A DNA stretch of 52,363 nucleotides from a virus (Duplodnaviria; Caudoviricetes), in the IMG/VR virus record IMGVR_UViG_3300020461_000009, positions 1 through 52,363 of that record. One strand, 5' to 3'. The position numbers were made by a program, and so were the translations under genes. Positions 1,777 through 25,318 of this stretch are shown here, in pieces (position 1 is the stretch's first letter; each line of letters starts with the position of its first letter). The notes below the pieces were generated by a model. It saw only the letters and a program-made list of their open reading frames with translations. It was not told where the DNA came from and did not search any database.

Positions 1777-1854
1777 CGAGTCCCCGAGTCCCCGAGTCCC
1801 CGAGTCCCCGAGTCCCCGAGTCCCCGAGTCCCCGAGTCCCGAGTCCCGAGTCCC
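1777..1854 (+). repeat. Tandem array of 10 CGAGTC-containing units (CGAGTCCC / CGAGTCC)
   Basis: CGAGTC starts at 1777, 1785, 1793, 1801, 1809, 1817, 1825, 1833, 1840 and 1847. Confidence 0.95.
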
Positions 1855-2193
1855 TTATGATTTGTAGATTTGCCCTGATCTAAAAGGCATTAAAATTTCC
1901 TCTTGATAGCGATCATAGATAAACCACTTAAAGTTTTTTTGAAATACACTTAAACCAAAAGCAAACTCCTCTAATAAAGCGTTTAACCTTGATTTAGTTG
2001 TATTAGTTTGCCAGCCGCCATCGAAGATGGTTAATTCTCTTTTAGGGTGGTTATAACTGCCTATAAGGTTATTATGTAGGTAGATTTGTGACTCTATACC
2101 ATCAGCAGAAGTTCTTACTGCTGTGTTACCTTTTGAGAAGTATTTTTTTTGAACCCTGATAGCGTGGTTCATTTCTTTTTCAATTTTTCTCAT
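1855..2193 (-). CDS. Conserved cyanophage-type hypothetical protein (GGWQTNTTKSRLNALL motif)
   Basis: 112-aa ORF; motif recalled from cyanophage early proteins. Confidence 0.75.
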   Translation of the reverse strand: MRKIEKEMNHAIRVQKKYFSKGNTAVRTSADGIESQIYLHNNLIGSYNHPKRELTIFDGGWQTNTTKSRLNALLEEFAFGLSVFQKNFKWFIYDRYQEEILMPFRSGQIYKS

Positions 2194-2218
2194 AACATTT
2201 AAAGATAAAGAATAAAAA

Positions 2219-2280
2219 ATAGGACTTACGTTCTTAGTGTGATTTAGTAAATAGTGTGAGTTAGTTAGTGAACTGCCTAT
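2219..2280 (-). ncRNA. Putative 5'-leader RNA element (GG-CN / GUAAGY-CC internal loop)
   Basis: ATAGG-CA-GTTC...GAAC-GTAAGT-CCTAT, starting at the predicted TSS; same pattern at 4370-4429 and 20855-20900. Confidence 0.45.
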
Positions 2281-2286
2281 GACCTA

Positions 2287-2346
2287 ATATTAGTGCATAT
2301 TTTGGCCTAGTTAGTATTGTTACAGTACTTCTTAATACTTTGTAAC
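2287..2346 (-). promoter_or_regulatory. Early promoter with HLR1/RpaB-like repeat
   Basis: GTTACAAA-GT-ATTAAGAA then GTACTGTAACAATACTAA; -10 TAATAT. Confidence 0.65.
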
Positions 2347-2348
2347 AA

Positions 2349-2558
2349 TTAATAAAGAGAGCATTTTTTTATTCTCTCAGGGAAATAAGTTCCTACAACC
2401 TCATTGTACATAGCCATAAAATTAACTATTTCAGTATCGCTAAATTTTGCAAGTGCATCTTTTTTAGCGTGTTCTAAAGATTGCAACATTAAGTTAGTCT
2501 GCCAATCAGTTAACTTAAAAACTCGCATCTTTTTGATTTGATTGTCTGTAAGGTTCAT
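2349..2558 (-). CDS. Hypothetical early protein
   Basis: Within ORF 2349-2582; start re-called at MNLTD after the CTATCTTT leader. Confidence 0.7.
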   Translation of the reverse strand: MNLTDNQIKKMRVFKLTDWQTNLMLQSLEHAKKDALAKFSDTEIVNFMAMYNEVVGTYFPERIKKCSLY

Positions 2559-2586
2559 AATAAAAGATAGTTGCTTTAACAATTCA

Positions 2587-2646
2587 AATGTACCTTAGAT
2601 TTATAGCTAATTAGTATTGTAACAGTACTTCTTAACATTTTGTAAC
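2587..2646 (-). promoter_or_regulatory. Early promoter with HLR1/RpaB-like repeat
   Basis: GTTACAAA-AT-GTTAAGAA; -10 TACATT; spacing identical to 2287-2346. Confidence 0.7.
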
Positions 2647-2649
2647 AAT

Positions 2650-2678: not shown

Positions 2679-2740
2679 ACTAACCCTTTTGTGTGTGTGA
2701 TCGCTTGCCTGCGAGTCTCTCAGCGAGTGCCTGCAAGTCT

Positions 2741-2953
2741 TTAACCCTCTTCTACCAAGTGAGTTAATTTCATAGTTCTCAATCCAGTATCGTCAGTAAA
2801 GAAAAATTTACCTATATGCTGTTTTTGAGCTTTCTCGATAATTGCATGACATCTATCAGCAATTTCTTGATGATTTTCGGCCATACGTCTTTCTACTCTT
2901 TGGTATAAAGTTCGATTATCGAAAATTTCTTGAATGATGTAATAATCGGTCAT
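2741..2953 (-). CDS. Hypothetical protein
   Basis: 70-aa ORF, ATGA overlap with upstream gene. Confidence 0.7.
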   Translation of the reverse strand: MTDYYIIQEIFDNRTLYQRVERRMAENHQEIADRCHAIIEKAQKQHIGKFFFTDDTGLRTMKLTHLVEEG

Positions 2954-3219
2954 TTTCGTACCTCCTCAAAGTTGTAAGTTTTTTCTAAAATGCTCCGCAC
3001 TCTCTCTCTATCTATAGAATCGCCATCCCCCCAAGTCCAAGTAGATTCGGGATTATCTAAAAACAATTCATAATCTTTTACTGCCTTTTTGATGTCAGTT
3101 TTTGTAAGTTTTTGCCCTGTTACCATCTGGTGTAAGGGGTAAATTGCATCATAAGAACCATAAAAGCTATAGACATAATCTATAAATTCTTGTTTTTGTG
3201 AAGTTAAGATAGAAGTCAT
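2950..3219 (-). CDS. Conserved cyanophage-type hypothetical protein (FIDYVYSFYG...GDSIDRERVR)
   Basis: Start re-called at MTSIL after CTATCTTTATC leader. Confidence 0.75.
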   Translation of the reverse strand: MTSILTSQKQEFIDYVYSFYGSYDAIYPLHQMVTGQKLTKTDIKKAVKDYELFLDNPESTWTWGDGDSIDRERVRSILEKTYNFEEVRK

Positions 3220-3247
3220 TGATAAAGATAGTTTGTTGAACACCCTT

Positions 3248-3306
3248 ACTATAGCTGTAATTTTTACTTGTTAGTATTGTTACAGTATTTCTTAACATTC
3301 TGTAAC
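3248..3306 (-). promoter_or_regulatory. Early promoter with HLR1/RpaB-like repeat
   Basis: GTTACAGA-AT-GTTAAGAA; -10 TATAGT. Confidence 0.7.
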
Positions 3307-3309
3307 AAT

Positions 3310-3339
3310 AAAAAAAAGAGGGGTTTATCACTCCCCTCT
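3310..3339 (-). terminator. Rho-independent terminator
   Basis: A-run plus AGAGGGG...CCCCTCT stem. Confidence 0.75.
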
Positions 3340-3397
3340 AGGTACTATCTTTATATGCCACCCTGTTTGCGTGCCTGCGAGTCTCTGCAAGTCTCTA

Positions 3398-3850
3398 CTA
3401 GCCATAAACTAGGGTGTTATAGGTTGTTATCTGCAGTATAGAATCTGCTATAGAAGAATCTATAAGTCCCAAGTCTTTATCCTTAAATGCTTCAAAAACT
3501 TGACCACAATCATAAGTATTAAGATTAGTTTTACCTGAGACTATGTTTTCTATAGCTTTAATAACATCTCCAACTTTTAATTCATGTTTATCTTCTTCAA
3601 TATCTTCTATCCTAATTTTGGTGTCTAGTGTTAAATCTTTTACCCAAGCGCAACAGCCCTCATGCTCATAATCTTGATTAGGTAGGTAGTAGCCATCTTC
3701 GTCTTCTTCAATGTCTCCTACTGTAACGCTATGCGCCCAATATCCTGACCCTTGACCCATAGTGCAAAATAAATCTCTAAGGTCTTGTATGCTAATTTCA
3801 AACCAAAAATTAGCGTGTAATTGAAATTTTTGTTCGGTTGTTTTAGGCAT
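3398..3850 (-). CDS. Hypothetical acidic protein
   Basis: 150-aa ORF, TAATG coupling, GGAGGAG SD. Confidence 0.8.
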   Translation of the reverse strand: MPKTTEQKFQLHANFWFEISIQDLRDLFCTMGQGSGYWAHSVTVGDIEEDEDGYYLPNQDYEHEGCCAWVKDLTLDTKIRIEDIEEDKHELKVGDVIKAIENIVSGKTNLNTYDCGQVFEAFKDKDLGLIDSSIADSILQITTYNTLVYG

Positions 3851-4341
3851 TACTCCTCCTCCTTTTTGTTTTCGTCAATGTAATCTAATAACTTATATGC
3901 CATATCATTAATAACTTCATACTGAGCCAAACCAATAAGCTCAAATATATTTTCTTGACCACTAGCATGATCTGACTCAACAAGGCCACGATTTAGGTTC
4001 TCTCCTAACCATCTAACTCGATCAGCATTGTAAACATCTACAAGACCATCAACAATTTCAAATCTACGATCTTCTACCTCGTCACGATCTTCGCACTCTA
4101 CGAAATCTAAAAGTAAAAAATAGATAGTGCTATATCGCCAATCATTAGGCCACTCTTCATCATGCAATTTATATATGAGATTATCTAGTATCTCTTCTCT
4201 ATCGACATGATTATCATCAATAGTGTAATAAGTTTTACTCATGCCACGATCTACTTGCTCTTGAGTTCTAGTGTTTCTTACAAAAGCGTCAATTAAATAC
4301 TGTGTGTATTCTTGAAATTTAGTTTTAGTTGAATTAGCCAT
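3850..4341 (-). CDS. Acidic protein resembling the T7 Ocr (gp0.3) DNA-mimic anti-restriction family
   Basis: DRDEVEDRRFEIVDGLVDVYNAD...QYEV aligns by eye with Ocr [23 protein letters not shown]...IYEQ; highly acidic; early position. Confidence 0.5.
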   Translation of the reverse strand: MANSTKTKFQEYTQYLIDAFVRNTRTQEQVDRGMSKTYYTIDDNHVDREEILDNLIYKLHDEEWPNDWRYSTIYFLLLDFVECEDRDEVEDRRFEIVDGLVDVYNADRVRWLGENLNRGLVESDHASGQENIFELIGLAQYEVINDMAYKLLDYIDENKKEEE

Positions 4342-4369
4342 AAGCTTAAAGATAGAAAATAAAAGTTAG

Positions 4370-4429
4370 TCAGGACTTACAAGACGTAATTTCTTAACTG
4401 AATTAAGACAACCATAGATCTCGGCCTGA
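4370..4429 (-). ncRNA. Putative 5'-leader RNA element (GG-CN / GUAAGY-CC)
   Basis: TCAGG-CC-GAGAT...GTCTT-GTAAGT-CCTGA immediately after the predicted TSS. Confidence 0.45.
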
Positions 4430-4436
4430 TATTTAT

Positions 4437-4485
4437 ACAATAGCAAATTATAATACTATTGTGGTAGTTTGTTACATTTGTTAAT
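4437..4485 (-). promoter_or_regulatory. Early promoter with HLR1-like repeat
   Basis: ATTAACAA-AT-GTAACAAA; -10 TATTGT (alternative TATAAT at 4452-4447). Confidence 0.5.
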
Positions 4486-4717
4486 ACTCAATACCATATC
4501 CGTCAGTATCTTTAAATTCATTTAAAAACTTTTTTATAACATAAGGATTCAAAGTTTTATTATGAAAGACTTTAATAAATTGAGCAGCCATAAAAATTCT
4601 TTCTTCGTCCCAAATAGTATTATGATTCACATCAAATTTAATTTGATTTCTAATTGCCTGTGAATAATTTAATTCAACAGTTACATCTTCAAATTTTTTT
4701 GTTTTTCTAGTAGCCAT
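4481..4717 (-). CDS. Hypothetical protein
   Basis: 78-aa ORF. Confidence 0.7.
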   Translation of the reverse strand: MATRKTKKFEDVTVELNYSQAIRNQIKFDVNHNTIWDEERIFMAAQFIKVFHNKTLNPYVIKKFLNEFKDTDGYGIEY

Positions 4718-4735
4718 AATAATTGATAAAAATAA

Positions 4736-4799
4736 GGGTTAGTATTATACCTAGAAGTTTTTTCAAGCCCCTTCTAGGCGATTCTGAGAGGGCAATTTT
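4736..4799 (+). repeat. Dispersed ~60-bp element (GGT-N9-ACC...AAGCCCCTTCTAGGCGATTCTGA)
   Basis: Related copies at 362-414, 6347-6399 and, inverted, 25312-25374. Confidence 0.6.
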
Positions 4800-4963
4800 A
4801 TACCTAAAGCGTCATATTCTGCTTTAAGTTGCTCATCACTAATTTCGTGATTAAACCAAGCGTTTTCAATAATGGCTCTTCTTTCGGCTCTTTCTTTTTT
4901 TGTTGATATTCTTTTCATAGGTTTAAAAATAGCGTAAGGAGAGCAGATATAATTGTTTTCCAT
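4763..4963 (-). CDS. Hypothetical protein
   Basis: 66-aa ORF, TAATG coupling; alternative start at 4918. Confidence 0.6.
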   Translation of the reverse strand: MENNYICSPYAIFKPMKRISTKKERAERRAIIENAWFNHEISDEQLKAEYDALGIKLPSQNRLEGA

Positions 4964-5184
4964 TAATGGTCACAATTATGAGCTTTATAAACATCTTCAT
5001 TCCAATGTTCATTATTTTTAAGTATTCCTAGACGAGTCATAATCTGGTCATATACAAACATACCTGATCTACTCATGCGGCCAGAAGTGTAGTCCCAACC
5101 TAAATCTACTAGGTCATCTATTAATTCAGAATTTTTTTTGTATTTATCTGTTTTGATTTTTTTAGGTGCAAATGGATTAGACAT
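4963..5184 (-). CDS. Hypothetical protein
   Basis: 73-aa ORF. Confidence 0.7.
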   Translation of the reverse strand: MSNPFAPKKIKTDKYKKNSELIDDLVDLGWDYTSGRMSRSGMFVYDQIMTRLGILKNNEHWNEDVYKAHNCDH

Positions 5185-5225
5185 AATAATAAAAAATAAG
5201 GTTTACATATAATGGTTAGGGGGTC

Positions 5226-6017
5226 TTATGACCCACCTAACCTTTTGTAGCCACCGCTTGCGACTTGCCTAGATAAGCCTACGCTACCGCCTGCTGATTG
5301 CCCTGCTGAACTACCAGAACCGCCTTGAGTAAAACCAGAACTAGAACCTAATCTAGGATACTTTTGTTTTTTGTATGCTCTGATAATTTCTTTTTCTGTA
5401 TTGTTTTTCTTTTGAACTGCTAGTGCAGATTGGTTAACAGTTTTACTGTCAAGTTGTAATTGTCTACCATTCTCTTCCTCTTCTAATTTCATTTCATAGA
5501 AACGACTAGCAACTTTGTTTGCCCAACCTTTTCTAAAGCTGTTTCTGTGGGCTGAACCCATCATTGCAACTTGAAATGGATCTTCTTTGCAATGCTTTGT
5601 CCAATCATCTTCTAAAGCCTGTAAAAGATAATCTGTATAGATCTCTATTTCTATTTGACTTTTCTTTGATGAGAAGACCTCGAAATGTCTAGTTATCGTA
5701 CGCTTATAACTATATCCGTTATAGTCAGCGTCATCAAAAGCATAAACAATAGAGCCATTATAAAACCTAGCAACTGCACCTAATATTGTTGCTGTAGCAG
5801 GGTCGATGCGCTTGTAAGGTTGTCCATATCTGAATGAGATAGCTTCTATCTCCTCGTCAACAGTAGACATATCTAACTGCTGCTCTAGTTGTTCTTTAGT
5901 AATACCTCTAGCTTGAAGCTGTTGCTCTAGCTTTTCTTCTGCTGCTCTTCTCTCGTTAGGATTAGAAGAAGTTGTTAGTCCTAAAATTTTAGATAGAACT
6001 GATAATGATCTTGCCAT
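5226..6017 (-). CDS. DUF2786-domain protein
   Basis: N-terminal LSKILGLTTSSNPNERRAA matches the DUF2786 pattern; NSFRKGW motif and Gly-rich tail; start re-called at MARSL. Confidence 0.75.
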   Translation of the reverse strand: MARSLSVLSKILGLTTSSNPNERRAAEEKLEQQLQARGITKEQLEQQLDMSTVDEEIEAISFRYGQPYKRIDPATATILGAVARFYNGSIVYAFDDADYNGYSYKRTITRHFEVFSSKKSQIEIEIYTDYLLQALEDDWTKHCKEDPFQVAMMGSAHRNSFRKGWANKVASRFYEMKLEEEENGRQLQLDSKTVNQSALAVQKKNNTEKEIIRAYKKQKYPRLGSSSGFTQGGSGSSAGQSAGGSVGLSRQVASGGYKRLGGS

Positions 6018-6050
6018 GTGATAAAAGATAGTAAAATTGTTTACATATTT

Positions 6051-6099
6051 AATATAGCGCATTATGGTACTAATGCGCTACTTTGTTACATTCTGTAAT
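6051..6099 (-). promoter_or_regulatory. Early promoter with HLR1-like repeat
   Basis: ATTACAGA-AT-GTAACAAA; -10 TATATT; contains the TAGCGCATTA...TAATGCGCTA palindrome. Confidence 0.6.
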
Positions 6100-6101
6100 A
6101 T

Positions 6102-6329
6102 TTAATTATTGGTTTTTTGAAGCTTTGAAAAAAATAAATATTTAAGATTATTGTTCATTAAAAAAGCAAGAATATAACTTCTTACTATTTTTCTTATGCC
6201 TTCTATGTCTGAATAAGTTAATTTATCAGATTCAAAAATATAAGACATTTTATTAAGATCATGTATAAATTCAAAAAATAAATCTTCATTTGAATTGTTG
6301 CATCTTTCTATAAGTTCAGAAGTAATCAT
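6102..6329 (-). CDS. Hypothetical protein
   Basis: 75-aa ORF, very AT-rich. Confidence 0.6.
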   Translation of the reverse strand: MITSELIERCNNSNEDLFFEFIHDLNKMSYIFESDKLTYSDIEGIRKIVRSYILAFLMNNNLKYLFFSKLQKTNN

Positions 6330-6408
6330 AATTTTTCTAAAGATAAGGGTTATAGATATACCTAGAACAACTTAGAGGGCTGTTCTAGGCGATTGTGAGT
6401 GGACTAAA

Positions 6409-6714
6409 TTAGACCACTACATAAATTTTTTCAAGATAAGGACATTCTTGCTTTGTTTCTAAACAAGTAACAACATCAAAGCTATCCATTGACCAACCTT
6501 GAGCATTTGAAATATCAAAAATGTGAACTGTCAACTTTTGATTCTTAGGAAATTTATAAAGATGTTTGTTGCATCTTTTAAAATGTTTCCCTGCTTTGGT
6601 TGATAATACATAATTGTCTTCTGAGCCTTGCGCCCAACAATTACAAAGTTCTCGACCTCCAAAGATAAAAGCAAGCTTAGTTGCTTTTTCTGTTTTCAAT
6701 AAAGTCTTAGACAT
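6409..6714 (-). CDS. Hypothetical protein
   Basis: 101-aa ORF, CTATCTTTT leader. Confidence 0.75.
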   Translation of the reverse strand: MSKTLLKTEKATKLAFIFGGRELCNCWAQGSEDNYVLSTKAGKHFKRCNKHLYKFPKNQKLTVHIFDISNAQGWSMDSFDVVTCLETKQECPYLEKIYVVV

Positions 6715-6742
6715 AAAAGATAGTAAAATAAACTACACACTT

Positions 6743-6791
6743 AATATAGCAACTATTAGTATTAATATGCTACTCTGTAACAATTTGTAAT
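6743..6791 (-). promoter_or_regulatory. Early promoter with HLR1-like repeat
   Basis: ATTACAAA-TT-GTTACAGA; -10 TATATT. Confidence 0.6.
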
Positions 6792-6867
6792 AATTAGTAG
6801 TGGGCTTACATTATTGGAATGTGGCTCAAAAAAGAACTCAGGTATGCCAAATCAAATGCCACTATGC

Positions 6868-7248
6868 CTATGCCTGCGAGTCTTCCGAGTCTTGCAAGTC
6901 TCCCAAGTCTTTAGCATATGGGTCTTTATCAGACCATTCAATATCACCTATTATTTGACCAAGTTGTGATGCTTCTATCTCTACGCAATCGTAATCCCAT
7001 AGATCATTACCATAATTTTTTCTGTTTTCTGGTGTATCGAAATTTTCCCAATTTTCAATAAAACTGGTATTTATCATACCCGAATCATAAAAAATTTCAT
7101 CCCAAGATACTGTTTGGATATGTGGTTCTGGTTCAATAAGAAACTGTGGACTATATCCATAAGCTTCTTCAAAGCTTTCCCAATCTCCACTACATCCAAC
7201 AAATCTCCAATTAAAAAAAGAATGTTTGTTAATAATTGCTTTAGGCAT
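6868..7248 (-). CDS. Acidic hypothetical protein, paralog of 7862-8173
   Basis: Shared IIxxxxFxxWRF...SxDxxxxxxGxIxxxxIEN pattern. Confidence 0.75.
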   Translation of the reverse strand: MPKAIINKHSFFNWRFVGCSGDWESFEEAYGYSPQFLIEPEPHIQTVSWDEIFYDSGMINTSFIENWENFDTPENRKNYGNDLWDYDCVEIEASQLGQIIGDIEWSDKDPYAKDLGDLQDSEDSQA

Positions 7249-7862
7249 TAATCTTCCTCCTTCTTATCAAGAAAAGCTGTATCAATTCCCATATGCGTAA
7301 ACTTTCTAAGGATATGGTCTTTGGTATATTCATCTGGAACATATGACATAAGAATTTGTATAGCTGTTTCATATTTGCTATTTTTTCTTTTGTCAACAGG
7401 TTGTTTAATAATATCCATGTATTCATCATTATTTTGAATACCACCTGCCACAAAGTCCCATTCGTCTTGCATATAAGATACAAAATCTAGGTATTCTTCA
7501 ATATGCTCGAAGTCAGCACCTAACCACTCGAACTCGTTATCCTCAACATAACTATAGAGAGAATCGTAATCCATATCCATAAGTTCCTGTAATAACTTTG
7601 GATTGTTAACTTTAAATTTTTCTACTGTAGTATTCTCAGTAAACGTATAAAATTCTATGCAGTTATAGAATTTATTTTTTTCTTGGCCTTCCTTTAATTT
7701 TCTACCATTATATAAATAAGGTAATTCACAGGTGGCGAGTACATAGCGTAGTGTCTCGTCTGACATCTCATAAAAGTCTTGATTGTTGTAACCTTCTTCT
7801 GGTAAATCAAGATAAACAAATTTTTTAACGATTTGTTCTTGTGTAAATGTTGTTGTTGTCAT
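7248..7862 (-). CDS. Acidic hypothetical protein
   Basis: 204-aa ORF, coupled at both ends. Confidence 0.8.
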   Translation of the reverse strand: MTTTTFTQEQIVKKFVYLDLPEEGYNNQDFYEMSDETLRYVLATCELPYLYNGRKLKEGQEKNKFYNCIEFYTFTENTTVEKFKVNNPKLLQELMDMDYDSLYSYVEDNEFEWLGADFEHIEEYLDFVSYMQDEWDFVAGGIQNNDEYMDIIKQPVDKRKNSKYETAIQILMSYVPDEYTKDHILRKFTHMGIDTAFLDKKEED

Positions 7863-8173
7863 TACTCTTCCTCCTTATTAGTCCATTCGACATAATACCA
7901 ATCTTGTTCTGGATGAGTTTCAATTTCTTCAAAGTCTCCATAATCATCAACAATTCCATATTCATCAATAAATTCCTTAGGAAGTTCATTTTCAATAATA
8001 TGGGATGGAATATAACCAGTATTAGATATTAAATCATCTAAACTAATAGTGGCTACATTTTTTTCCCCTAGTTGTTCTTCAACAATAGTATTTAGAACAT
8101 CATAATCATCAGAATCGGAGAATCTCCAATCAAGAAAAGTTTTTCTATCAATAATAAGTTTTTGTTTAGTCAT
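7862..8173 (-). CDS. Acidic hypothetical protein, paralog of 6868-7248
   Basis: Start re-called at MTKQK after CTATCTTTTATC leader. Confidence 0.75.
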   Translation of the reverse strand: MTKQKLIIDRKTFLDWRFSDSDDYDVLNTIVEEQLGEKNVATISLDDLISNTGYIPSHIIENELPKEFIDEYGIVDDYGDFEEIETHPEQDWYYVEWTNKEEE

Positions 8174-8203
8174 TTGATAAAAGATAGTTGCGTGAACATT
8201 CTT

Positions 8204-8262
8204 ACTATAGCTTATATTTTTAACTATTAGTATTATTACAGTATTTTGTAACAAATTGTTAC
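8204..8262 (-). promoter_or_regulatory. Early promoter with HLR1/RpaB-like repeat
   Basis: GTAACAAT-TT-GTTACAAA; -10 TATAGT. Confidence 0.65.
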
Positions 8263-8263
8263 A

Positions 8264-8959
8264 TTAAAATAATATTCCTTGTCTGTTTATATTATCGTAA
8301 GTATCGTATCGTACATTATCGCCTTTCGGATATGGCTCTATTGCGTAAGTTAACGAGTCTCTCATAGATTTCTTTTGCTTGCGAGTCCCTAAAAAATAAA
8401 AATATCTATGTTTTCTTGGTCGATCTAAAGTATATAATCTATCTCCATACATTTCTCTAAGTTTTAAAATTTTACCCTTTGCGAGTCCTCTGCCTACTTT
8501 GTCCATCAAAGATGCACTATGCAAGTGTTCGAGTCCCTTTACCTTATAGTCAAATCTTTTTGCTGAAAGTCCAGTATAAATAAAATTACAAGCTTGATAA
8601 ATATAACCATGATGATTAAGAGATGTATCTGCATAACTTACAACAACATTTGGTGTCGATAATTGTTTTAGGGTTTGAGATACAAAAAAAGATAAAACAT
8701 TTTTTTCTAAACCTTCATCAACAACTAATCTATTTAACTCTAAAAAAGTATCTTGAAATTTACCTGCAAAAGCATATTTAACTAGAGTATGAGCAACTGG
8801 TCTTCCGTAGCTGCAAATACCAACAATAAATTTATTTTTATATAGTCCATAAGCATAAGAAACACTTGGAATACGTTTTGCATAATGTTTTTGTGTAAAC
8901 CACTCAACATATTCATTTGTACTAAGCTTGCGAACTATATATTGATCTTTAAGTCTCAT
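8264..8959 (-). CDS. mom: Mom-family (GNAT fold) DNA adenine-modification protein
   Basis: KHY, GICSYG, LELNRL and VVSYADxxxxHxGYIYQACNFxYTG motifs match Mu Mom-like proteins. Confidence 0.75.
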   Translation of the reverse strand: MRLKDQYIVRKLSTNEYVEWFTQKHYAKRIPSVSYAYGLYKNKFIVGICSYGRPVAHTLVKYAFAGKFQDTFLELNRLVVDEGLEKNVLSFFVSQTLKQLSTPNVVVSYADTSLNHHGYIYQACNFIYTGLSAKRFDYKVKGLEHLHSASLMDKVGRGLAKGKILKLREMYGDRLYTLDRPRKHRYFYFLGTRKQKKSMRDSLTYAIEPYPKGDNVRYDTYDNINRQGILF

Positions 8960-9500: not shown

Positions 9501-9511
9501 TGTTTAATCTC

Positions 9512-10232: not shown

Positions 10233-10234
10233 GA

Positions 10235-16631: not shown

Positions 16632-16653
16632 CACTTTTGCGATCTGTAACATC

Positions 16654-18405: not shown

Positions 18406-18409
18406 AAGG

Positions 18410-18455: not shown

Positions 18456-18462
18456 GTAATTT

Positions 18463-18699
18463 ATGAAAGAGCCTAACAACTGGAGCAAAATGCAAAAAGA
18501 AACAAGCGAAGAGTTTGTAGATAAATTATTGCTTCATGTAAGAACTAATAATTTTGAGGCGTTTTGTTTCGCTGTTGATCGTGGTATGTGGTATTACGGC
18601 CAAGAAAAACTTACCTATCTTATGCACAAAAAACTTCTTGCAAAAATATATGAATGTGGTGAGTTAGATAAATTTCTTAAGTGGGGAGAAAAATTCTAA
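18463..18699 (+). CDS. Hypothetical protein
   Basis: 78 aa; first gene of the plus-strand operon. Confidence 0.7.
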   Translation: MKEPNNWSKMQKETSEEFVDKLLLHVRTNNFEAFCFAVDRGMWYYGQEKLTYLMHKKLLAKIYECGELDKFLKWGEKF

Positions 18700-19541
18700 T
18701 GATATATAAACCACTTGTAATGTCTAACGAAGAGTATCATGGCAAGACTAAGTACGAGTCTTCTTCTACTATTCGTAAAGTATTAACTAGCCCTAAAAAA
18801 TATCTTTACGATAAAACTGCTGAATCTGTGCCTACTAAAGCTATGGAAGAAGGTACTGCTGTGCATACATTCTTTTTAGAAAATGAATTGTTCAAGAATA
18901 GATATTGTTTTAAACCTAAAGCATTTAATGGTAGAACTAAAGAAGGTAAGCAATGGATGGAAGAACATGGTCATCTAAATATATTGGCTGCTGAGTGGGA
19001 AGAAAATCTAATCCACATGAACCATAGTTTTTTAGATAGTCCAGCAAAAATAATTTACGATAGAAAAGGATTAACAGAATTAAGCTATTTTAGTGAAGAT
19101 TTAGGCGGAATAAGAGCAAAATGTAGACCTGATTGGATTTCTAGCGATGGTCATACAGTAGTAGATTTAAAAACTACACAAGATGCAAGTCCTAAAGGTT
19201 TTCAAAAATCTATAGCAAACTTTGGCTACCATATTCAAAGTTCATGGTATATGCGAGTCCTTAAAAACTTAGATGTACCTGTAAAAGAATTTATATTTAT
19301 TGCTATAGAAAAAACAGCACCTTTTTGTGTTGGTGTTTATCGTGCTAGTGAAGAAATGCTAGAAGAAGGCAATAAGAAAGTAGATGAAGCTATTGACAAA
19401 ATATTATGGTGTAAAGAAAACGATAGCTACCCAGACTATACTCCTAACGAAATAGAAACAATCGACTTACCTCCTTGGATGAAGAAAAAACAACAACCAG
19501 AATACGACCCTAATTTAGATCAGGAGATTCAACTTTACTGA
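18699..19541 (+). CDS. recE: RecE-like exonuclease VIII (PD-(D/E)XK, DUF3799 type)
   Basis: GTAVHTFFLE, KCRPD, VDLKTT, YHIQSSWY. Confidence 0.85.
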   Translation: MIYKPLVMSNEEYHGKTKYESSSTIRKVLTSPKKYLYDKTAESVPTKAMEEGTAVHTFFLENELFKNRYCFKPKAFNGRTKEGKQWMEEHGHLNILAAEWEENLIHMNHSFLDSPAKIIYDRKGLTELSYFSEDLGGIRAKCRPDWISSDGHTVVDLKTTQDASPKGFQKSIANFGYHIQSSWYMRVLKNLDVPVKEFIFIAIEKTAPFCVGVYRASEEMLEEGNKKVDEAIDKILWCKENDSYPDYTPNEIETIDLPPWMKKKQQPEYDPNLDQEIQLY

Positions 19542-19672
19542 TGAGAAAAGAATTTCCCTATGACCCTTATGAGGGCATGGTCTTTTACGACCCAGAAACA
19601 GAAAAAACTTGGGTGTTTGCTCGTGACGAGTGGGTAGACATCACTTATGAGGACATTACCTATGACATCTGA
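19541..19672 (+). CDS. Small hypothetical protein, 43 aa (MRKEFPYDPYEGMVFYDPET...)
   Basis: Not in ORF track; TGATG coupling to recE; translated by hand. Confidence 0.6.
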   Translation: MRKEFPYDPYEGMVFYDPETEKTWVFARDEWVDITYEDITYDI

Positions 19673-20282
19673 AATTACAAAAACTAATCAAGAGGGCGAG
19701 TCCTCTATATATCAAAGCACCGAGTCTTTTGAGTTTGCTCAAAGACAAGCTAAAAGTCTTGCAGAATCTAACCTTGTGCCAATAAGCTATCAAGGTCAAA
19801 AAGGATTATCTAACTGCCTTGTTGCATTAGAAATGAGTAAGAGAATGAATCTTAGTCCTCTTACAGTAATGCAAAATCTAAATATTATTCATGGCAGACC
19901 AAGTTGGAGTGCTGCTTTTGTATCTAGTCAAATATTAGGCTGCAATAGATTTAAAAACTTTGACTATATTGTTACTGGAAAAGATGATACTTTATCTGTG
20001 CAATGCCAAGCTATAAGACTAGAAGATAACAAGTTAGTAAAAGGAACAGCAGTAACAATGAAGATGGCGAGACAAGAAGGCTGGACTAAAAATAGTAAAT
20101 ATCAATCAATGCCAGAACTAATGCTCAGAAACAGGGCTGCTACTTTCTTCGGTAGACAATACATACCTGATTTGTTGTTAGGTGTGCAAACTAGCGAAGA
20201 GGTAGTCGATATACAACCTATAGACGTTACTACAAGTAATGTTGAGGTAGTACAGGAGGCTAAAGATGACTTCGGATTCTAA
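19662..20282 (+). CDS. recT: RecT-like ssDNA annealing protein
   Basis: LVP.SY..., MQNLNIIHGRPSWSA, PELMLRNRAA; follows recE. Confidence 0.75.
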   Translation: MTSEITKTNQEGESSIYQSTESFEFAQRQAKSLAESNLVPISYQGQKGLSNCLVALEMSKRMNLSPLTVMQNLNIIHGRPSWSAAFVSSQILGCNRFKNFDYIVTGKDDTLSVQCQAIRLEDNKLVKGTAVTMKMARQEGWTKNSKYQSMPELMLRNRAATFFGRQYIPDLLLGVQTSEEVVDIQPIDVTTSNVEVVQEAKDDFGF

Positions 20283-20457
20283 GAAAGAGTTTTTAACACC
20301 TAGCGAACTTGCTGAAAGATGGCGAGTTCATATTGGTTCTGTTGAAAGATGGAGAAGAGAAGGCAAACCGCCTTCTTTCTACACCATCAATGGAAAGATC
20401 CTCTATAAGTTGGCTGAGATAGAGGATTTAGAATCAGCCAAACGTCAATCCAATTAA
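20266..20457 (+). CDS. Excisionase/MerR-like HTH protein
   Basis: FLTPSELAERW...WRREGKPP...ILY. Confidence 0.8.
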   Translation: MTSDSKKEFLTPSELAERWRVHIGSVERWRREGKPPSFYTINGKILYKLAEIEDLESAKRQSN

Positions 20458-20466
20458 TTTTTATCT

Positions 20467-20850
20467 ATGGACTTTAAATTACCACTTGCAGTTTTCTCAC
20501 AAGATGCAGAAGACCACAAAAAGCGTTACAAGGAGAACTACGATCCTAATAAAAACTATCCTAAGTATTCTGGTGTTATGCAGATTACAGAGGCCGATAT
20601 TATCAAGCTATGTGAGTATGTACAGAAAGCAAAGCCAGAACATAGCGACTTTCATGGAGAAGGTGTAGTTACTATTAGAGCTACTGGCTATCTTAACGAG
20701 AGTAAGATGGGCAAAAAGTATATCGGTCTTAACCTAGAGCCTGACTATAAAACGATGAAAGCTATAGAGGAAGCTGATGCGAATGACTCTGCGAGTCCCT
20801 CACCTGCACCTAGAACAGTAGACAAAAAAGAAGAGGAGTTTCCTTTTTAA
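20467..20850 (+). CDS. Putative ssDNA-binding protein
   Basis: P.YSG, G.KY..L motifs and acidic EEEFPF tail; within the recombination operon. Confidence 0.6.
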   Translation: MDFKLPLAVFSQDAEDHKKRYKENYDPNKNYPKYSGVMQITEADIIKLCEYVQKAKPEHSDFHGEGVVTIRATGYLNESKMGKKYIGLNLEPDYKTMKAIEEADANDSASPSPAPRTVDKKEEEFPF

Positions 20851-20854
20851 ATAT

Positions 20855-20900
20855 GGGGCTGTAAGAGTTTTTGGTGAGTTTTTCTCTTATGTAAGCCCCC
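20855..20900 (+). ncRNA. Hairpin with GG-CT / GUAAGC-CC internal loop (possible terminator or RNA element)
   Basis: GGGG-CT-GTAAGAG...CTCTTAT-GTAAGC-CCCC. Confidence 0.45.
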
Positions 20901-20941
20901 TCACTTTTACTAGATTTTAAGCCAAATTAAGCTAAAATAGA

Positions 20942-21346
20942 ATGAAATTATCCTTATCTATGCCTTTAACTTTTAATAGTAAACAAATTGATAAAGTTGT
21001 TACGATTGATGATGTCGGGTCTTTATCTAATCCAGAAGTTTTGTTGTTGAAAGATGAGCTAATGACAGCTATCAACAATATGGATAACTATATTAAGAAA
21101 TTTAAACAAGAAAAACAAGAAAAATACGATAAAGATTGGCATCAAAAAGTAAGACGCAAACAACAGGTATGCAAAGCTTTTTTATCTCAACTTATAAGCC
21201 TAGATCACGATGAAAGTCTATTCCGATCTATTTATGATAAACATTTTTCTAAAATTATCTTAGAATATATAGATAGAAACGACTTTAGAATTATTCACGA
21301 CAAAGCACGTTCTTTAGCTATTGCTGAATTAGAAAAAATAACATGA
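20942..21346 (+). CDS. Hypothetical protein
   Basis: 134-aa ORF; start may be 20960. Confidence 0.75.
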   Translation: MKLSLSMPLTFNSKQIDKVVTIDDVGSLSNPEVLLLKDELMTAINNMDNYIKKFKQEKQEKYDKDWHQKVRRKQQVCKAFLSQLISLDHDESLFRSIYDKHFSKIILEYIDRNDFRIIHDKARSLAIAELEKIT

Positions 21347-21645
21347 CACCTAAATACGTTAACGGAAAAAGAAGTAACAAATCAGAATTAAAATTGCAAA
21401 AATTAAAAGAAAACAAGCTAGAAGAATTAGCAAAAAAATTAGATTCTGATATTAGAGGTTACGATCATATTGTTCAATATGCAGACAATCATACTGCGAG
21501 TCTTCGTAGTGATTGGGTTGATGAAAATATTAGAACTATTATTATGAAACATAATTATCAAGTTAATAAAGTTTCAAAAATGTTAATTCGTGATTTTACA
21601 GCCAAAGAACAGGAGGCAGTTGACAATGCAATCACAGAATTTTAG
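21343..21645 (+). CDS. Hypothetical protein
   Basis: 100 aa, ATGA coupling. Confidence 0.7.
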   Translation: MTPKYVNGKRSNKSELKLQKLKENKLEELAKKLDSDIRGYDHIVQYADNHTASLRSDWVDENIRTIIMKHNYQVNKVSKMLIRDFTAKEQEAVDNAITEF

Positions 21646-21853
21646 AGATAAAGAATTATTAGCAATGACACCTGATATGGAAGGTGTTACAAGACCACAA
21701 AAAGATAAAAAAACTAAAAAATTTACTTTTATTGTTAAAGGTATTGGGATAGGAACTGCACCAATGAAAATATCAACATATGCAGAAACACAAGCTAAAG
21801 CTGTTAAATATATTAAAGCTAGATGGAAAAATTGTAGTTACGAATTGATATAA
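21626..21853 (+). CDS. Hypothetical protein
   Basis: Start re-called at MQSQN after AGGAGG. Confidence 0.7.
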   Translation: MQSQNFRDKELLAMTPDMEGVTRPQKDKKTKKFTFIVKGIGIGTAPMKISTYAETQAKAVKYIKARWKNCSYELI

Positions 21854-21869
21854 AAAAAGTAAAAAAATC

Positions 21870-22055
21870 TTGTATGTCACACATTTAGCCTGCAAAGGTA
21901 ATTTTGGAGTCCAGCCAATATATTATGGTCTTACATATAAATTTAAAGGTTGGTTTTATGACGGAAAAGTTGTCTATCTTAGCAAAACATTTGAAACACG
22001 ATCAGAGGCACAAGCTGAAGCAGAAAGAATCAGGAGAAATTGTATGTTGCGGTAA
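21870..22055 (+). CDS. Small hypothetical protein (possible AP2-like DNA-binding fold)
   Basis: GW.YDGK.VYL.K.FET..EA..A pattern. Confidence 0.45.
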   Translation: MYVTHLACKGNFGVQPIYYGLTYKFKGWFYDGKVVYLSKTFETRSEAQAEAERIRRNCMLR

Positions 22056-22133
22056 TCATGTATTTAGAGTTATAAATGGAAAAAGATACTGGCTTAGTCC
22101 TCCTCCTAATGATTACGAACCATAAATACAAAA

Positions 22134-22448
22134 ATGGCATCTCTTAGATACCATGCTGGTCGCATGGTTCTTTATGAGGAAGAGCCTACTGTATGGCGAG
22201 TAAAAATTAAAACAAAAAAAGGTAAATTAAATTTACCCTTACAAGCAAAAGAATTAGAGCCTGCACTAATAGAAGCAGAATATTTATATGCTGACGCTAG
22301 ATGTATGAGCAGAGATCATCCTTATTGTATAGATTGTATACATCATCATGTAATAAAAGCAGAATGTAGTCTTGGTTTACCAGAAGGCAAAGCTAGTGGT
22401 GGAGTATGGGCTAAAGACTGCGCTTACTTTTGGGAAAGGAAGATTTAG
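22134..22448 (+). CDS. Hypothetical protein with C-terminal Cys cluster
   Basis: CIDC...C...C motif. Confidence 0.7.
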   Translation: MASLRYHAGRMVLYEEEPTVWRVKIKTKKGKLNLPLQAKELEPALIEAEYLYADARCMSRDHPYCIDCIHHHVIKAECSLGLPEGKASGGVWAKDCAYFWERKI

Positions 22449-22683
22449 TATCTTTTCTATCTATATAATCTCCAGCTTGATTTATTATTTTTACTAACCT
22501 AAAATTTTCTTTAGCAAAAGCACTAATAAGATCTGGTATGTCATCAGGATCGACAGTATCAATAATATGACGTAAAAATACTTCAACGTATAATTCTTCT
22601 TCTAATGAAACTTCAGCTAATACCCAAGGCTCAACCTTGCGCCTTCTTTTAGCTTGTTTATCAAACCAATTAGACCAAGGCAT
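22411..22683 (-). CDS. Hypothetical protein
   Basis: Within ORF 22411-22695; convergent with the plus operon. Confidence 0.65.
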   Translation of the reverse strand: MPWSNWFDKQAKRRRKVEPWVLAEVSLEEELYVEVFLRHIIDTVDPDDIPDLISAFAKENFRLVKIINQAGDYIDRKDTKSSFPKSKRSL

Positions 22684-22777
22684 TACAAGTTTCATTACAA
22701 GTCCCTTTAAACTAAGACTAGCGTACTGGTCATATAAGGCAACAAAGCTATACTTAGCTTAGTTACACCTACACATT

Positions 22778-22840
22778 ATGCCAGGTCATTACGGAACAGG
22801 AATGAAGAAGAAAAAGAAGAAAAAAGGCGGTAAAAAATAA
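22778..22840 (+). CDS. 20-aa poly-lysine peptide MPGHYGTGMKKKKKKKGGKK
   Basis: Translated by hand; resembles tiny basic peptides recalled from marine phages. Confidence 0.55.
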   Translation: MPGHYGTGMKKKKKKKGGKK

Positions 22841-23002
22841 TTACCTACCTGGAAACAAAGCTTTTTCTAACGCATCAACTAATCTGTCATCAACTGTATT
22901 GTCAGTTTTTTTGACCATAGCTCGTACTATATCAAGTGCGAGTTTTTTTAATGCTTTTCCACGAAGAAAAGCAAAAATAATTGGCTCGATAATTTTTAGC
23001 AT
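22841..23002 (-). CDS. 53-aa amphipathic protein (TDNTVDD motif), possibly lysis-associated
   Basis: Translated by hand: MLKIIEPIIFAFLRGKALKKLALDIVRAMVKKTDNTVDDRLVDALEKALFPGR. Confidence 0.65.
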   Translation of the reverse strand: MLKIIEPIIFAFLRGKALKKLALDIVRAMVKKTDNTVDDRLVDALEKALFPGR

Positions 23003-23087
23003 AATTTTTTTTATGTTGCTAGATTAATACTAGCTCACTCCTCACACATAGAGCTATAGCCTCTTCTACTGGTCATAAAGGAAGAGG

Positions 23088-23318
23088 CTATCTTCTTGGC
23101 TTAATCTCTGCAACAGCAAGCTCCACTTCCTTTAGTCGATGAAATACCTCTTTCATGTCATCGTGCATATCATCTATTTTTGTTGTTAATAATTCTATAG
23201 CTGTTGTATTTCGCACAAGATCATCTCTCGATTGTCTACCCCTATAAGATATTGATCCCACAGATACAAAACACGCTGTAAGTAATGCCCCACCTGTTGC
23301 TGCTATTACTTCAATCAC
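23088..23318 (-). CDS. Membrane-anchored coiled-coil protein
   Basis: GTG start re-called; N-terminal hydrophobic helix followed by coiled coil. Confidence 0.6.
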   Translation of the reverse strand: MIEVIAATGGALLTACFVSVGSISYRGRQSRDDLVRNTTAIELLTTKIDDMHDDMKEVFHRLKEVELAVAEIKPRR

Positions 23319-23360
23319 TTTACGAGTCCTCGATCTATGTCTATTATACAGAAAAAGGCT

Positions 23361-23786
23361 ATGGAAAAAGAAAAAATAAAAAATATACCACAAAAAATTA
23401 AAGAAATAGACGATGATAAACCTGATTATCAGGAAAAAATCACGTTTTTAGTTTCTACAGTTGCACAAGGTTTTATATTAACTTGGTGTTTGCTTGTCTT
23501 GTCTTTAGGATATGTAAAGCTTCCTAATAAACTATTTGGTATGGACATACCAGACCAGCCAAGGGTTGACAGTACTTTTGCAGCAGGTCTTTTAGGTAAT
23601 ATTCTTGGAGGTCTAGGCATTTCTGTTAATGCTGCACAAGGTAATAAGAAGAAAAAGAAAGAAGAAGCAGAAAATGGTAATATTAGTAACTCTGCTGGTG
23701 GCGTACAAACTATAATAATAAAGCAGCCACTAGAAATCGTCACAACAAAACCTGACGTAATCAAAGTTGATCCCACAAAAAAATGA
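23361..23786 (+). CDS. Two-TM membrane protein (holin-like candidate)
   Basis: Two hydrophobic segments around DSTF, then a basic KKKKK tail. Confidence 0.6.
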   Translation: MEKEKIKNIPQKIKEIDDDKPDYQEKITFLVSTVAQGFILTWCLLVLSLGYVKLPNKLFGMDIPDQPRVDSTFAAGLLGNILGGLGISVNAAQGNKKKKKEEAENGNISNSAGGVQTIIIKQPLEIVTTKPDVIKVDPTKK

Positions 23787-24304
23787 AAAAACTACTTCCA
23801 TTTATTTTTGCAGTCGTAACTACTCCAACTTATGCCGAGATTACGGCTAAATATGTAACTTCAGCACAAATTTCCATAGATTCGCCTTATGTAATTACTA
23901 ATGCTGCACCATCAAGTTACAGTATTAGTGGAAGTAACATTACCACTTCTACAGGAACAGGAGATAGTGTTGTCACTAATGCAATTGGTGGATTGAATCT
24001 TGGAAGTTTTGGTAATACTGGTACGCCAAACGCAATACATACTAATAAGACAGTTACAAACGCTGGATCTGCTTTTTCTCTAAGCGAAAGTTATCAAGCT
24101 GGTGACGGGACACAAACTGCAATTACACCATCTAGCGGAATAGCAACTTTGCCTGTTCTTGGTGGACAAACTACAGTAATTTCTGGAGGTACTGCTGGAA
24201 ACTTAGCCTTAACCTCTGTATCATCAGGAATCCATACTTGTACGGCTGGTGGAAGTGGTACTAGCTGTATTGGATCTACTACTGTTAGTATAGAAATTGA
24301 CTAA
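23783..24304 (+). CDS. Secreted Ser/Thr/Gly-rich beta-strand protein
   Basis: Signal peptide MKKLLPFIFAVVTTPTYA; two Cys near the C terminus. Confidence 0.75.
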   Translation: MKKLLPFIFAVVTTPTYAEITAKYVTSAQISIDSPYVITNAAPSSYSISGSNITTSTGTGDSVVTNAIGGLNLGSFGNTGTPNAIHTNKTVTNAGSAFSLSESYQAGDGTQTAITPSSGIATLPVLGGQTTVISGGTAGNLALTSVSSGIHTCTAGGSGTSCIGSTTVSIEID

Positions 24305-24734
24305 ACTCTGGCTGCTGCTAGTATTTATATACCCGATCAAGGTTTTTGCTACCCCTGTAGTCCCTCAGTTCAGATCTGGGAGTTCTACGACTTCATCAAC
24401 TTCTGAATCTGTCATAAATGAAACTATAACCAGCTATCAGTATCGAACTGGTTATACATTTAGTGTTTCGGGTCACAATATAGAATCAACAGATATTAAT
24501 GGTTACATCAATCCAACACCTACAAGTGTTAATGAACAAACTGTTGGAGGAGTAAACTTTTCTTGGACTACTTTAGATGGCACAACAAATGCAAGGTGGA
24601 AGGTAGCAGTTCCCGGAAGTTCTTTCAGTTTAGTCGAAAGCGTGATGGCTCCCGGCCTCGATACAGTCACAAATATAACCCGGACTATAACTACGTCAAC
24701 TACCACAGAATCTACAAGTACGTTTGGGCAATAG
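24297..24734 (+). CDS. Secreted Thr/Ser-rich protein (PVVPxF motif)
   Basis: Signal peptide ending VFA; cyanophage-type conserved pattern. Confidence 0.75.
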   Translation: MTKLWLLLVFIYPIKVFATPVVPQFRSGSSTTSSTSESVINETITSYQYRTGYTFSVSGHNIESTDINGYINPTPTSVNEQTVGGVNFSWTTLDGTTNARWKVAVPGSSFSLVESVMAPGLDTVTNITRTITTSTTTESTSTFGQ

Positions 24735-25318
24735 CTGTAATTCTTTGCCCTGCAAGGGTTTTAGCGAATACAACAGTAGCGAGTCCACAAAGTCAATCGA
24801 CAGGGGTAGTAAATAATAATGCAACAATGATAACCCCTTCTAGTCATCCACAATTTAAAATGTCGCAAGGTATTATCTGCTCTTCTCCTAGCCTTACGTT
24901 TACACCCTATGTAACCGATGCTTGGTCATTTAACAGGCCAATAGAACAGGTGACGAGACAGAATATCTATGACGAAAATACTGGAGAAGTAAAATATGTG
25001 CAAGAAACTCCTCGCTTTGAAAAAGATAATTACAATTTAAACTATGGTTTTAGTCTTCAACTAAACATACCATTAGGAAAATCTCCAGCCCTTTGCCAAG
25101 AAGCGACTCAAGTAAATATAGATGCACAAAGATTACTAATAGCTAAAACACAAATGGAGATGGAATTATACAGACTTAAAATATGTGGTGAACAAGCTCG
25201 CCTCGGCGTACAGTTTGTTGGTAAGTATGCTATTAGTTGTGAAGGAATACAAGTTAACATACCTCCTAATCAAGTTCTGCCTCATGTACACAAAATTGAG
25301 GTAAAAGCACAAAAATAG
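24563..25318 (+). CDS. Secreted or outer-membrane-type protein with amphipathic beta strands and Cys-containing helical C terminus
   Basis: Signal-like segment ending RVLA (true start uncertain, downstream of 24563); YNLNYGFSLQLNIPL. Confidence 0.65.
   Translation: MDYFRWHNKCKVEGSSSRKFFQFSRKRDGSRPRYSHKYNPDYNYVNYHRIYKYVWAIAVILCPARVLANTTVASPQSQSTGVVNNNATMITPSSHPQFKMSQGIICSSPSLTFTPYVTDAWSFNRPIEQVTRQNIYDENTGEVKYVQETPRFEKDNYNLNYGFSLQLNIPLGKSPALCQEATQVNIDAQRLLIAKTQMEMELYRLKICGEQARLGVQFVGKYAISCEGIQVNIPPNQVLPHVHKIEVKAQK

Follow-up and report, generated by a model that had tools for sequence, protein, structure and literature searches.

A strand-polar CGAGTC word, dispersed and arrayed in the non-structural half of a cyanobacterial siphovirus genome, as a candidate nick-site signal

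Strand-specific, site-specific nicks in virion DNA have been known from phage T5 for decades and were later found in a few Pseudomonas phages. In the account that the report on phage tf gives of its mapped sites, all 14 nick sites match the consensus TACT/RTGMC and lie on the top strand only, with 12 of the 14 in the early half of the genome between 2.1 and 24.7 kb (PMC3517423). The same account relates that the nicks of phage phikF77 are repaired early in infection and reappear late, and describes the function of such nicks as still not clear (PMC3517423). Here, we describe a short word, CGAGTC, that recurs in a single orientation throughout the left half of a virus record of the Caudoviricetes (IMG/VR record IMGVR_UViG_3300020461_000009) and forms a tandem array close to its left end. 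The stretch analyzed, henceforth the window, is the whole record of 52,363 bases, which is classed as linear and 100% complete. Like the tf consensus, the word is asymmetric and of 9-nt scale, lies on one strand only, is strongly over-represented and conserved in relatives, and is concentrated in the early/replication half independently of gene orientation, with the terminase at the opposite end and on the other strand. The differences are that the word is another one, that it is present in 38 copies and not 14, that it also forms tandem arrays and frequently takes a G/A variant form, and that its nicks are predicted from the sequence; moreover, tf is a podovirus with terminal repeats, whereas the window represents a cos siphovirus of a cyanobacterium. 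The interruptions of T5 and the phiKMV-like phages bear a looser likeness to it than those of tf.

Exact counts over the whole window gave 38 copies of CGAGTC on the plus strand as against a single GACTCG. Ten of the 38 form the array at 1777..1852 and the other 28 are dispersed, starting at 2712, 3378, 5033, 6877, 6886, 8354, 8382, 8482, 8530, 11087, 11287, 11421, 12538, 12811, 13138, 13441, 13674, 13928, 14121, 16824, 18755, 19254, 19697, 19721, 20792, 21497, 23323 and 24780, with none farther right. The domain of the dispersed copies (2712..24785, plus strand) thus holds 28 CGAGTC together with 22 CAAGTC, at a mean spacing of about 0.8 kb, as against two reverse copies of CAAGTC. The sole copy in the opposite orientation, at 49763..49768 on the minus strand, lies 2.6 kb from the right end, and one such copy is within chance expectation. 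If the 28 dispersed sites were placed at random, the chance of all of them falling in the left 48% of the genome would be about 1e-9. An earlier note on this DNA had reported a strand-polar CGAGTC signal limited to the left half with a 10-copy array, a single reverse copy at 49763 and no forward copy beyond 25 kb, all of which the exact counts bear out; the 27 dispersed positions that it listed were likewise recovered, the copy at 13441 being the one that it had missed. Its remark on many accompanying CAAGTC also holds, with 24 forward copies versus two GACTTG left of 25 kb.

The over-representation of the word was assessed against Markov models in the interval 1861-25000, with the array masked. 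CGAGTC emerged as the top over-represented hexamer of this interval (28 copies versus 1.34 expected under the order-1 model, p 3e-27), and under the order-3 model it still stood at 28 versus 5.1 expected (p 1.5e-12), with no reverse copy. The longer form TGCGAGTC occurs 13 times versus 0.1 expected, again with no reverse copy, and overall the enrichment of the word is 20- to 100-fold. GACTCG is therefore not of comparable frequency, nor is the distribution even along the genome. To the right of 25 kb both words are at background, with CAAGTC at nine versus 11 for GACTTG and CGAGTC at zero versus one for GACTCG; of the totals for the window, 24 of 33 forward CAAGTC lie left of 25 kb as against only two of 13 GACTTG.

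The bases flanking the 28 dispersed sites are biased, with T at -2 in 18 and G at -1 in 16, and pyrimidines follow the core at +1 (27 of 28), +2 (25 of 28) and +3 (22 of 28). CAAGTC shares the polarity of CGAGTC (22 versus two in the left half) and stands in for it at the same aligned positions in relatives, indicating that G and A are both tolerated at the second position. The extended word is thus about TGC(G/A)AGTCYY.

This word is a directional signal at the level of DNA. The dispersed sites occupy every one of the three codon phases; where genes run on the minus strand the sites are on the template strand, and where genes run on the plus strand they are on the coding strand. Their density is the same on both sides of the transcription switch at 18.4 kb, with 20 sites in 1.9-18.4 kb, where the genes are on the minus strand, and eight in 18.7-25.3 kb, where they are on the plus strand (about 1.2 per kb in both), and, as the earlier note had held, their orientation does not flip there. 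The word is, moreover, built from the rarest codons of the phage: TCG makes up 3% of serine and CTC 3% of leucine codons, and CGC and CGT are minor arginine codons. The codon phases and strands, and likewise the rare codons, rule out an origin in codon usage or a protein motif. In relatives with alignable DNA (15 of 19 loci; L021-L024 did not align), the identity of the six bases exceeded that of their flanks in 15 of 15, by 0.01 to 0.17. The earlier note's view that the signal is neither codon- nor transcription-driven is accordingly sustained on all these counts.

The layout of the genome sets the frame for any function. The window amounts to the complete genome of a cos siphovirus whose cohesive ends are 13 nt long: a 13-nt direct repeat (CTCCGAAGTTACC) occupies both termini, its left copy at 1..13 and its right copy at 52351..52363, the latter 168 bp outside the start of the small terminase gene. 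The right terminus is the start point of 22 of 26 other contigs inspected and the left terminus that of three others, and one contig (L126) crosses the left-right end junction; from these shared starts and the junction-spanning contig we read the repeat as 5'-protruding cohesive ends of 13 nt that were filled in at library preparation. The 13 terminal bases differ among lineages, and the adjacent block on the terminase side (CCTAGAAAAATTTTGCG, plus strand) is conserved. The structural and packaging genes run from 52195 down to 25373 on the minus strand and include lambda-type small and large terminases, portal, protease-capsid fusion, tube, tape measure and a gpJ-like tip. Open reading frame (ORF) analysis with Pfam and PDB searches showed the left half to hold the non-structural genes: those on the minus strand in 1-18.4 kb code for a Mom-like protein, a LigA-type adenylation protein, a PrimPol-VapE/D5 helicase, a VRR-NUC nuclease and a superfamily 2 helicase, and those on the plus strand in 18.7-25.3 kb include a PD-(D/E)XK exonuclease and a RecT-like protein. 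With the polarity of lambda, in which the end far from the terminase genes is packaged last and ejected first, the left end of the window would be the last packaged and first ejected. No replication-linked base skew could be separated from the transcription-linked skew.

The capsid gene of the window is matched at 98% identity by a 2.5-kb contig from a Prochlorococcus single-cell genome; this match and the low G+C together point to Prochlorococcus as the host. The closest isolates are the Synechococcus siphoviruses S-CBS1, S-CBS3 and S-LBS1 by capsid (44-47%), and S-LBS1 and S-2L by PrimPol.

The 10-copy array (1777..1852, plus strand) consists of eight 8-bp units, CGAGTCCC, with the last copies at 7-bp spacing. 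It lies in intergenic DNA rich in AT and in repeats, where it directly follows the stop codon that closes the minus-strand gene 1855-2193. Smaller clusters are similarly placed: a mini-array of CGAGTC, CGAGTG and CAAGTC at 11-bp spacing (2712..2739, plus strand; a member of the repeat families D3/D4) lies just past the stop of the minus-strand ORF 2741-2953, a pair of CGAGTC and CAAGTC at 10-bp spacing (3378..3393, plus strand) just past that of the minus-strand ORF 3398-3850, and a mini-array of two CGAGTC and two CAAGTC at 9-bp spacing (6877..6909, plus strand), also found in the relatives L007, L008 and L014, at the 3' end of the minus-strand ORF 6868-7248. The arrays and mini-arrays of the window thus sit right behind minus-strand stop codons, within a repeated intergenic cassette. 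Contigs of one sequencing run (X1) break inside the array, as expected for a repeat, and an 11.3-kb contig from an RNA library covers genes of both strands and so says nothing on transcription. The same region contains four copies of an intergenic element of about 61 nt (1586-1646, 2307-2367, 2607-2667 and 3267-3327) with the inverted repeat TTGTTACAG...CTGTAACAA, which looks like a repeated operator/promoter cassette of early minus-strand genes, and a further repeat, ATTTTGTATCAnCTTGTAC, at 40-58 and 1679-1697. Read on the minus strand, the array is (GGGACTCG)n, with GGGG runs split by ACTC and hence a potential G-quadruplex; this is probably incidental, since relatives with the unit CGAGTCTC have no G runs. 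The neighboring gene 1855-2193 is a member of the Kyano_Gp96 family (Pfam 1.4e-35), which is known elsewhere from T4-like cyanophages.

Relatives from other metagenomes show the same polarity. Loci around the PrimPol gene (L007-L020) carry 8-27 copies one way versus 0-2 the other, and the polarity holds at PrimPol identities of 55-62% (L018 and L020); the signal was not seen in the more distant PrimPol loci L021-L024, in 80 loci around the capsid gene or, in the form of a comparable polar word, in the cyanosiphoviruses S-CBS1, S-LBS1 and S-2L. In S-LBS1, TACGTC was considered as a polar word and set aside as codon-driven. A second complete genome (G051; capsid 74%, PrimPol 64% identical) has 20 forward copies and no reverse copy, all within 3.1-17.5 kb, and an array of five copies at a 24-bp period. 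Arrays with the same core and other spacers occur in L010 (seven copies of CGAGTCTC), L015 (five) and L019 (six), and a further genome, G046 (PrimPol 63%, terminase 76%), has two, at 1.9 and 3.2 kb from the small terminase gene. Across three lineages, the arrays lie 1.8-3.2 kb from cos; as tandem direct repeats in AT-rich intergenic DNA that are kept in relatives, they look like an iteron-type origin. They are the more conserved part of the signal. Clusters of a TACGTC repeat are found 130-200 bp to the left of CGAGTC arrays in G046 (4716-4775 and 6006-6057) and, as the reverse complement, in L018 (2828-3009), an arrangement suggestive of a larger composite element to which the arrays belong.

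The reading that we rank first is that TGC(G/A)AGTCYY marks predicted strand-specific nick sites, to which, by analogy with tf, we give a probability of roughly one in three (about 0.35); recognition by the PrimPol-helicase at an origin comes second, followed by a Chi-like signal, a translocase cue and restriction avoidance. The words would be cis-acting sites of a phage-encoded, strand-specific DNA enzyme and would mark localized single-strand interruptions in one strand of the virion DNA, as in tf, the phiKMV-like phages and T5. A late nickase would cut each site and, with all sites on one strand, would cause no double-strand break; once the DNA is injected, the phage's own LigA-type adenylation protein could assist in resealing the nicks. 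Close to the cos end that is remote from the terminase, the arrays might act as high-occupancy pads for the nicking enzyme or yield a short gapped stretch.

The comparison with tf extends to the statistical behavior of the sites. In its annotation, tf has two convergent gene blocks with the terminase genes at the far right on the minus strand, as in the window, and the same k-mer scan applied to tf returned TACTGTGAC as the top 9-mer (11 copies versus 0.18 expected, with no reverse copy). As the scan thereby recovers the mapped tf consensus, a verified nick consensus leaves the kind of statistical footprint seen in the window. In T7, the pentamers of its primase, which are the best known of all primase sites, are not polar and exceed expectation at most twofold; hence, the pattern in the window fits nick sites better than primase sites. 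Nick sites of the tf type, the closest statistical match, were absent from the three options raised in the earlier note, namely a Chi-like signal, a primase site and a translocase or ejection cue.

A candidate for the resealing step is a stand-alone NAD-ligase-type adenylation (nucleotidyltransferase) protein of 259 residues (10949..11728, minus strand), which was recognized by Pfam (DNA_ligase_aden, 3.7e-24) and by matches to LigA structures and which retains the KxDG motif. It is 29% identical (E 4e-17) to the "NAD-dependent DNA ligase subunit A" of a T5-like Klebsiella phage (Demerecviridae); its best matches in cultured phages include 77 Klebsiella records, and among the matches listed, which also include Pectobacterium phage My1, the genomes are of about 110-123 kb. 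The gene is present in every array-bearing relative and was not found in the motif-less S-LBS1 and L023. To judge by sequence, its similarity to the T5-like ligase subunit and its co-occurrence with the arrays may be taken as a point for nick sites. The next gene (11768..12535, minus strand) has the same phylogenetic distribution and codes for a conserved protein of 255 residues with no recognizable fold. Of its 217 homologues, the 120 matches listed are all marine sequences. An AlphaFold2 model (29 homologues aligned with the query; predicted local distance difference test score, pLDDT, 75) had no fold match in the PDB (best E 1.4); no PDB sequence match or similarity to the T5-like ligase subunit B was seen either, and in the Atlas search the one lead was DUF6441, present in 14% of a single cluster.

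Several observations weigh against nick sites. The nuclease candidates do not track the signal: the VRR-NUC protein (14973..15329, minus strand; Pfam 1.7e-10), a possible if unspecific nickase, is also encoded by the motif-less S-LBS1, and PD-(D/E)XK proteins likewise occur in relatives without the signal, whereas the 255-residue protein that does co-occur with the arrays offers no fold match. The invariant core of the word contains GAGTC, the specificity of the nicking and type IIS enzymes Nt.BstNBI, PleI and MlyI; unlike the sites of these enzymes, the word has a frequent CAAGTC variant without GAGTC, and no matching large enzyme was found among the ORFs searched. More generally, no accessory gene cleanly separates the window, G051, L018 and L020 from G046, S-LBS1 and L023. 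The arrays raise a further difficulty, in that ten nicks 8 nt apart would leave a gap; tandem site arrays do not figure in what the tf report says of its sites (PMC3517423). The 38 sites with about 22 CAAGTC also exceed the 14 of tf. Finally, G046 has kept the arrays and the ligase-like gene, and its dispersed copies are non-polar (four forward, seven reverse). Arrays and dispersed copies are therefore separable, and the arrays may have a separate, primary function, such as that of an origin.

The main alternative, which we regard as possible although less probable than nick sites, is that the word is the recognition element of the phage PrimPol-helicase, the arrays being origin iterons or loading pads and the dispersed copies template sites for primer starts; forks would then leave the array in the rightward direction, with the plus strand as their lagging-strand template. 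The enzyme (12787..14946, minus strand; its gene carries six sites) is a PrimPol from the superfamily of archaeo-eukaryotic primases (AEP) fused to a VapE/D5-type helicase (Pfam VapE, 1e-61) and is of the S-2L type, with PDB matches to the AEP domain of the S-2L PrimPol (6ZP9, 2e-35) and to 7PDS (6e-31). Full-length orthologues, including the N-terminal 300 or so residues, are present in all signal- or array-bearing relatives, and the motif-less S-LBS1 and L021-L024 match only from residue 276-324 or thereabouts onwards. The arrays resemble the iteron origins of primase-helicase replicons such as P4 in being made up of direct repeats in intergenic DNA that is AT-rich; they have a conserved core, a variable spacer, periods of 8 or 24 bp and a position 1.8-3.2 kb from cos. 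The dispersed copies, in turn, resemble the sites of the NrS-1 PrimPol (TTTGGTTA or GTG(A/G)) in being strand-specific words of about 8-10 nt, and both their average distance of about 0.8 kb and the run of pyrimidines on the 3' side of the core would be suited to purine-initiated primers. That PrimPols can need specific templates is indicated by published accounts of two of them: in what is reported for the S-2L enzyme, no primase activity was obtained on M13 or random oligonucleotides and a template requirement is suspected (PMC8065100), and the NrS-1 enzyme is described as having an 8-nt recognition sequence (PMC8718748).

Against PrimPol recognition stands the confinement of the dispersed copies to half of the genome, which it leaves unexplained: a bidirectional origin at the array predicts the opposite orientation in the other half, where only background was observed, and a unidirectional fork predicts sites throughout the genome. 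The lack of such polarity and enrichment in the T7 primase sites likewise does not fit simple lagging-strand priming as the source of the word. Further, the PrimPol of G046 is as similar to that of the window (63%) as is that of L018 (61%), yet G046 has no polar dispersed copies. The primase site envisaged in the earlier note thus gains from the presence of a PrimPol-helicase in the phage and loses from the T7 comparison. The nick and PrimPol readings need not exclude each other; the word might be the obligatory template and loading sequence of the S-2L-type PrimPol-helicases of this clade, with the arrays as origin and the dispersed copies as programmed initiation points that leave strand-specific discontinuities, though we consider such a union of the primase-site and nick-site readings unlikely.

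A Chi-like signal, attenuating host RecBCD that enters at the cos end opposite the terminase, with 5'-RRGACTCGCA-3' on the minus strand as the active word, appears more doubtful still. In the lambda model, that end enters the cell first and is left free after cos cutting, and the geometry in the window is that of a Chi protecting it: the polar short word is correctly oriented for entry from the left end, the array lies 1.8 kb from this end, the density falls with distance, and the lone opposite copy is 2.6 kb from the other end. The enzyme should also be at hand, as recC (PF04257) turned up in 17 of the 26 host-genus genomes, a set with many incomplete ones, and no Gam-like gene was seen among the phage ORFs searched; marine Prochlorococcus carry recBCD according to the relevant part of a review (PMC5101192). 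Unlike the Chi sites of RecBCD and AddAB, however, the word shows neither over-representation nor a clear skew in the genomes of the host. A 400-kb part of a complete host-genus genome holds CGAGTC and GACTCG eight and 15 times versus 10-14 expected under Markov orders 1-4, and the octamers zero and two times versus about one expected; each of the 26 host-genus genomes (1.5-1.8 Mb) has 32-51 forward and 32-65 reverse copies, 77-103 in total. Per strand, the word is about 40 times denser in the non-structural half of the phage than in host DNA. In the genome G012, with origin and terminus assumed at contig start and middle, 59 versus 41 of the 100 listed places fall on the presumed leading strand. 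The geometry and the presence of recC thus agree with the Chi-like attenuator of the earlier note, and the neutral host frequency and weak skew weaken it. Moreover, a barrier of ten arrayed copies would gain little from 28 more sites, although these are maintained at the expense of rare codons, and an enzyme digesting as far as the array would by then have destroyed the cos end. Separately, the E. coli Chi octamer GCTGGTGG itself occurs ten times in the 52-kb window, eight of these on the coding strand of the local genes, and 29-37 times per 1.6-1.7 Mb in host-genus genomes, as against 1-6 for the reversed control, with no obvious skew.

We hold it to be more improbable again that a DNA translocase working on the last-packaged, first-ejected half reads the word as a polar cue, which might for instance slow the terminase before the terminal cos or guide an entry motor. 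The signal does lie in the half adjoining the end opposite the terminase, with arrays 1.8-3.2 kb before that end in three lineages, and strict polarity is typical of signals read by translocases, such as Chi and the FtsK-orienting polar sequences (KOPS). Nonetheless, we know of no such cue for cos terminases beyond cosQ, no candidate reader was found, and G046 is without polar dispersed copies despite the same terminase (76% identical). Least probable by far is a by-product of avoiding host restriction of type III or type ISP, which needs inversely oriented asymmetric sites: the single orientation of all copies is as if head-to-head pairs had been selected against, but avoidance cannot explain the 20- to 100-fold enrichment, the tandem arrays or the make-up from rare codons.

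The Mom-like DNA modification protein (8264..8959, minus strand; Pfam Mom, 9.7e-36), whose gene carries four sites, was likewise considered, in that the core of the word fits what we take to be the consensus of Mu Mom. Homologues are present in G046 (70%) and L015 (79%), and none was found in G051; a target of Mom-like modification was therefore rejected, as the 20:0 polarity of G051 requires no Mom homologue.

Searches for comparable elements brought up further repeats. A scan of viral contigs for three copies at an 8-bp period gave 25 stretches, of which seven belong to this clade and one to G046. Six others with the unit GACTCGCG (GC 0.43-0.49; G047-G050 and L132) are unrelated and, where checked, lie inside type I HsdS genes beside a methylase; the remaining 11 look like unrelated tandem repeats. 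The HsdS genes of G047, G048, G050 and also G049 contain 26, 9, 6 and 7 copies of (GACTCGCG)n, with coordinates L116 9635-9840, L133 2704-2773 and L131 7319-7364; the 26-copy array in L116 coincides with a frame break, and the repeat could be that of a phase-variable specificity subunit, unrelated to the CGAGTC signal. In L015 and L019, a palindromic element, ACCCGCA/TGCGGGT, is strongly over-represented on both strands, with TGCGGGG-type hexamers at 11-13 versus 0.6 expected; it differs from the CGAGTC word and was not seen in the window. Within the structural region, a single ORF of 826 residues (45203-47683) joins an Hva1_TUDOR-like domain, a prohead protease and the major capsid protein, an arrangement common to S-CBS1 and S-CBS3.

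No description of this signal or word was found in the literature searched, with supplementary files outside the search, and we place it among the polar phage words of the nick-site type, with tandem arrays and a number of sites that are unprecedented, in an abundant clade of uncultured cyanophages. If the sites are indeed nicked, the clade would be a case in which about forty sites are defined by sequence, along with tandem arrays and with natural variants without the dispersed copies, such as G046, and comparative tests of the purpose of such sites would become possible. If, instead, the PrimPol reads the word, it would be the primase-triggering template that the S-2L study, in its account of that enzyme, could not find, and would offer a concrete template for this family of enzymes, in which primase activity could not be elicited in vitro there (PMC8065100). 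On either reading, the word serves as a convenient marker of this clade.

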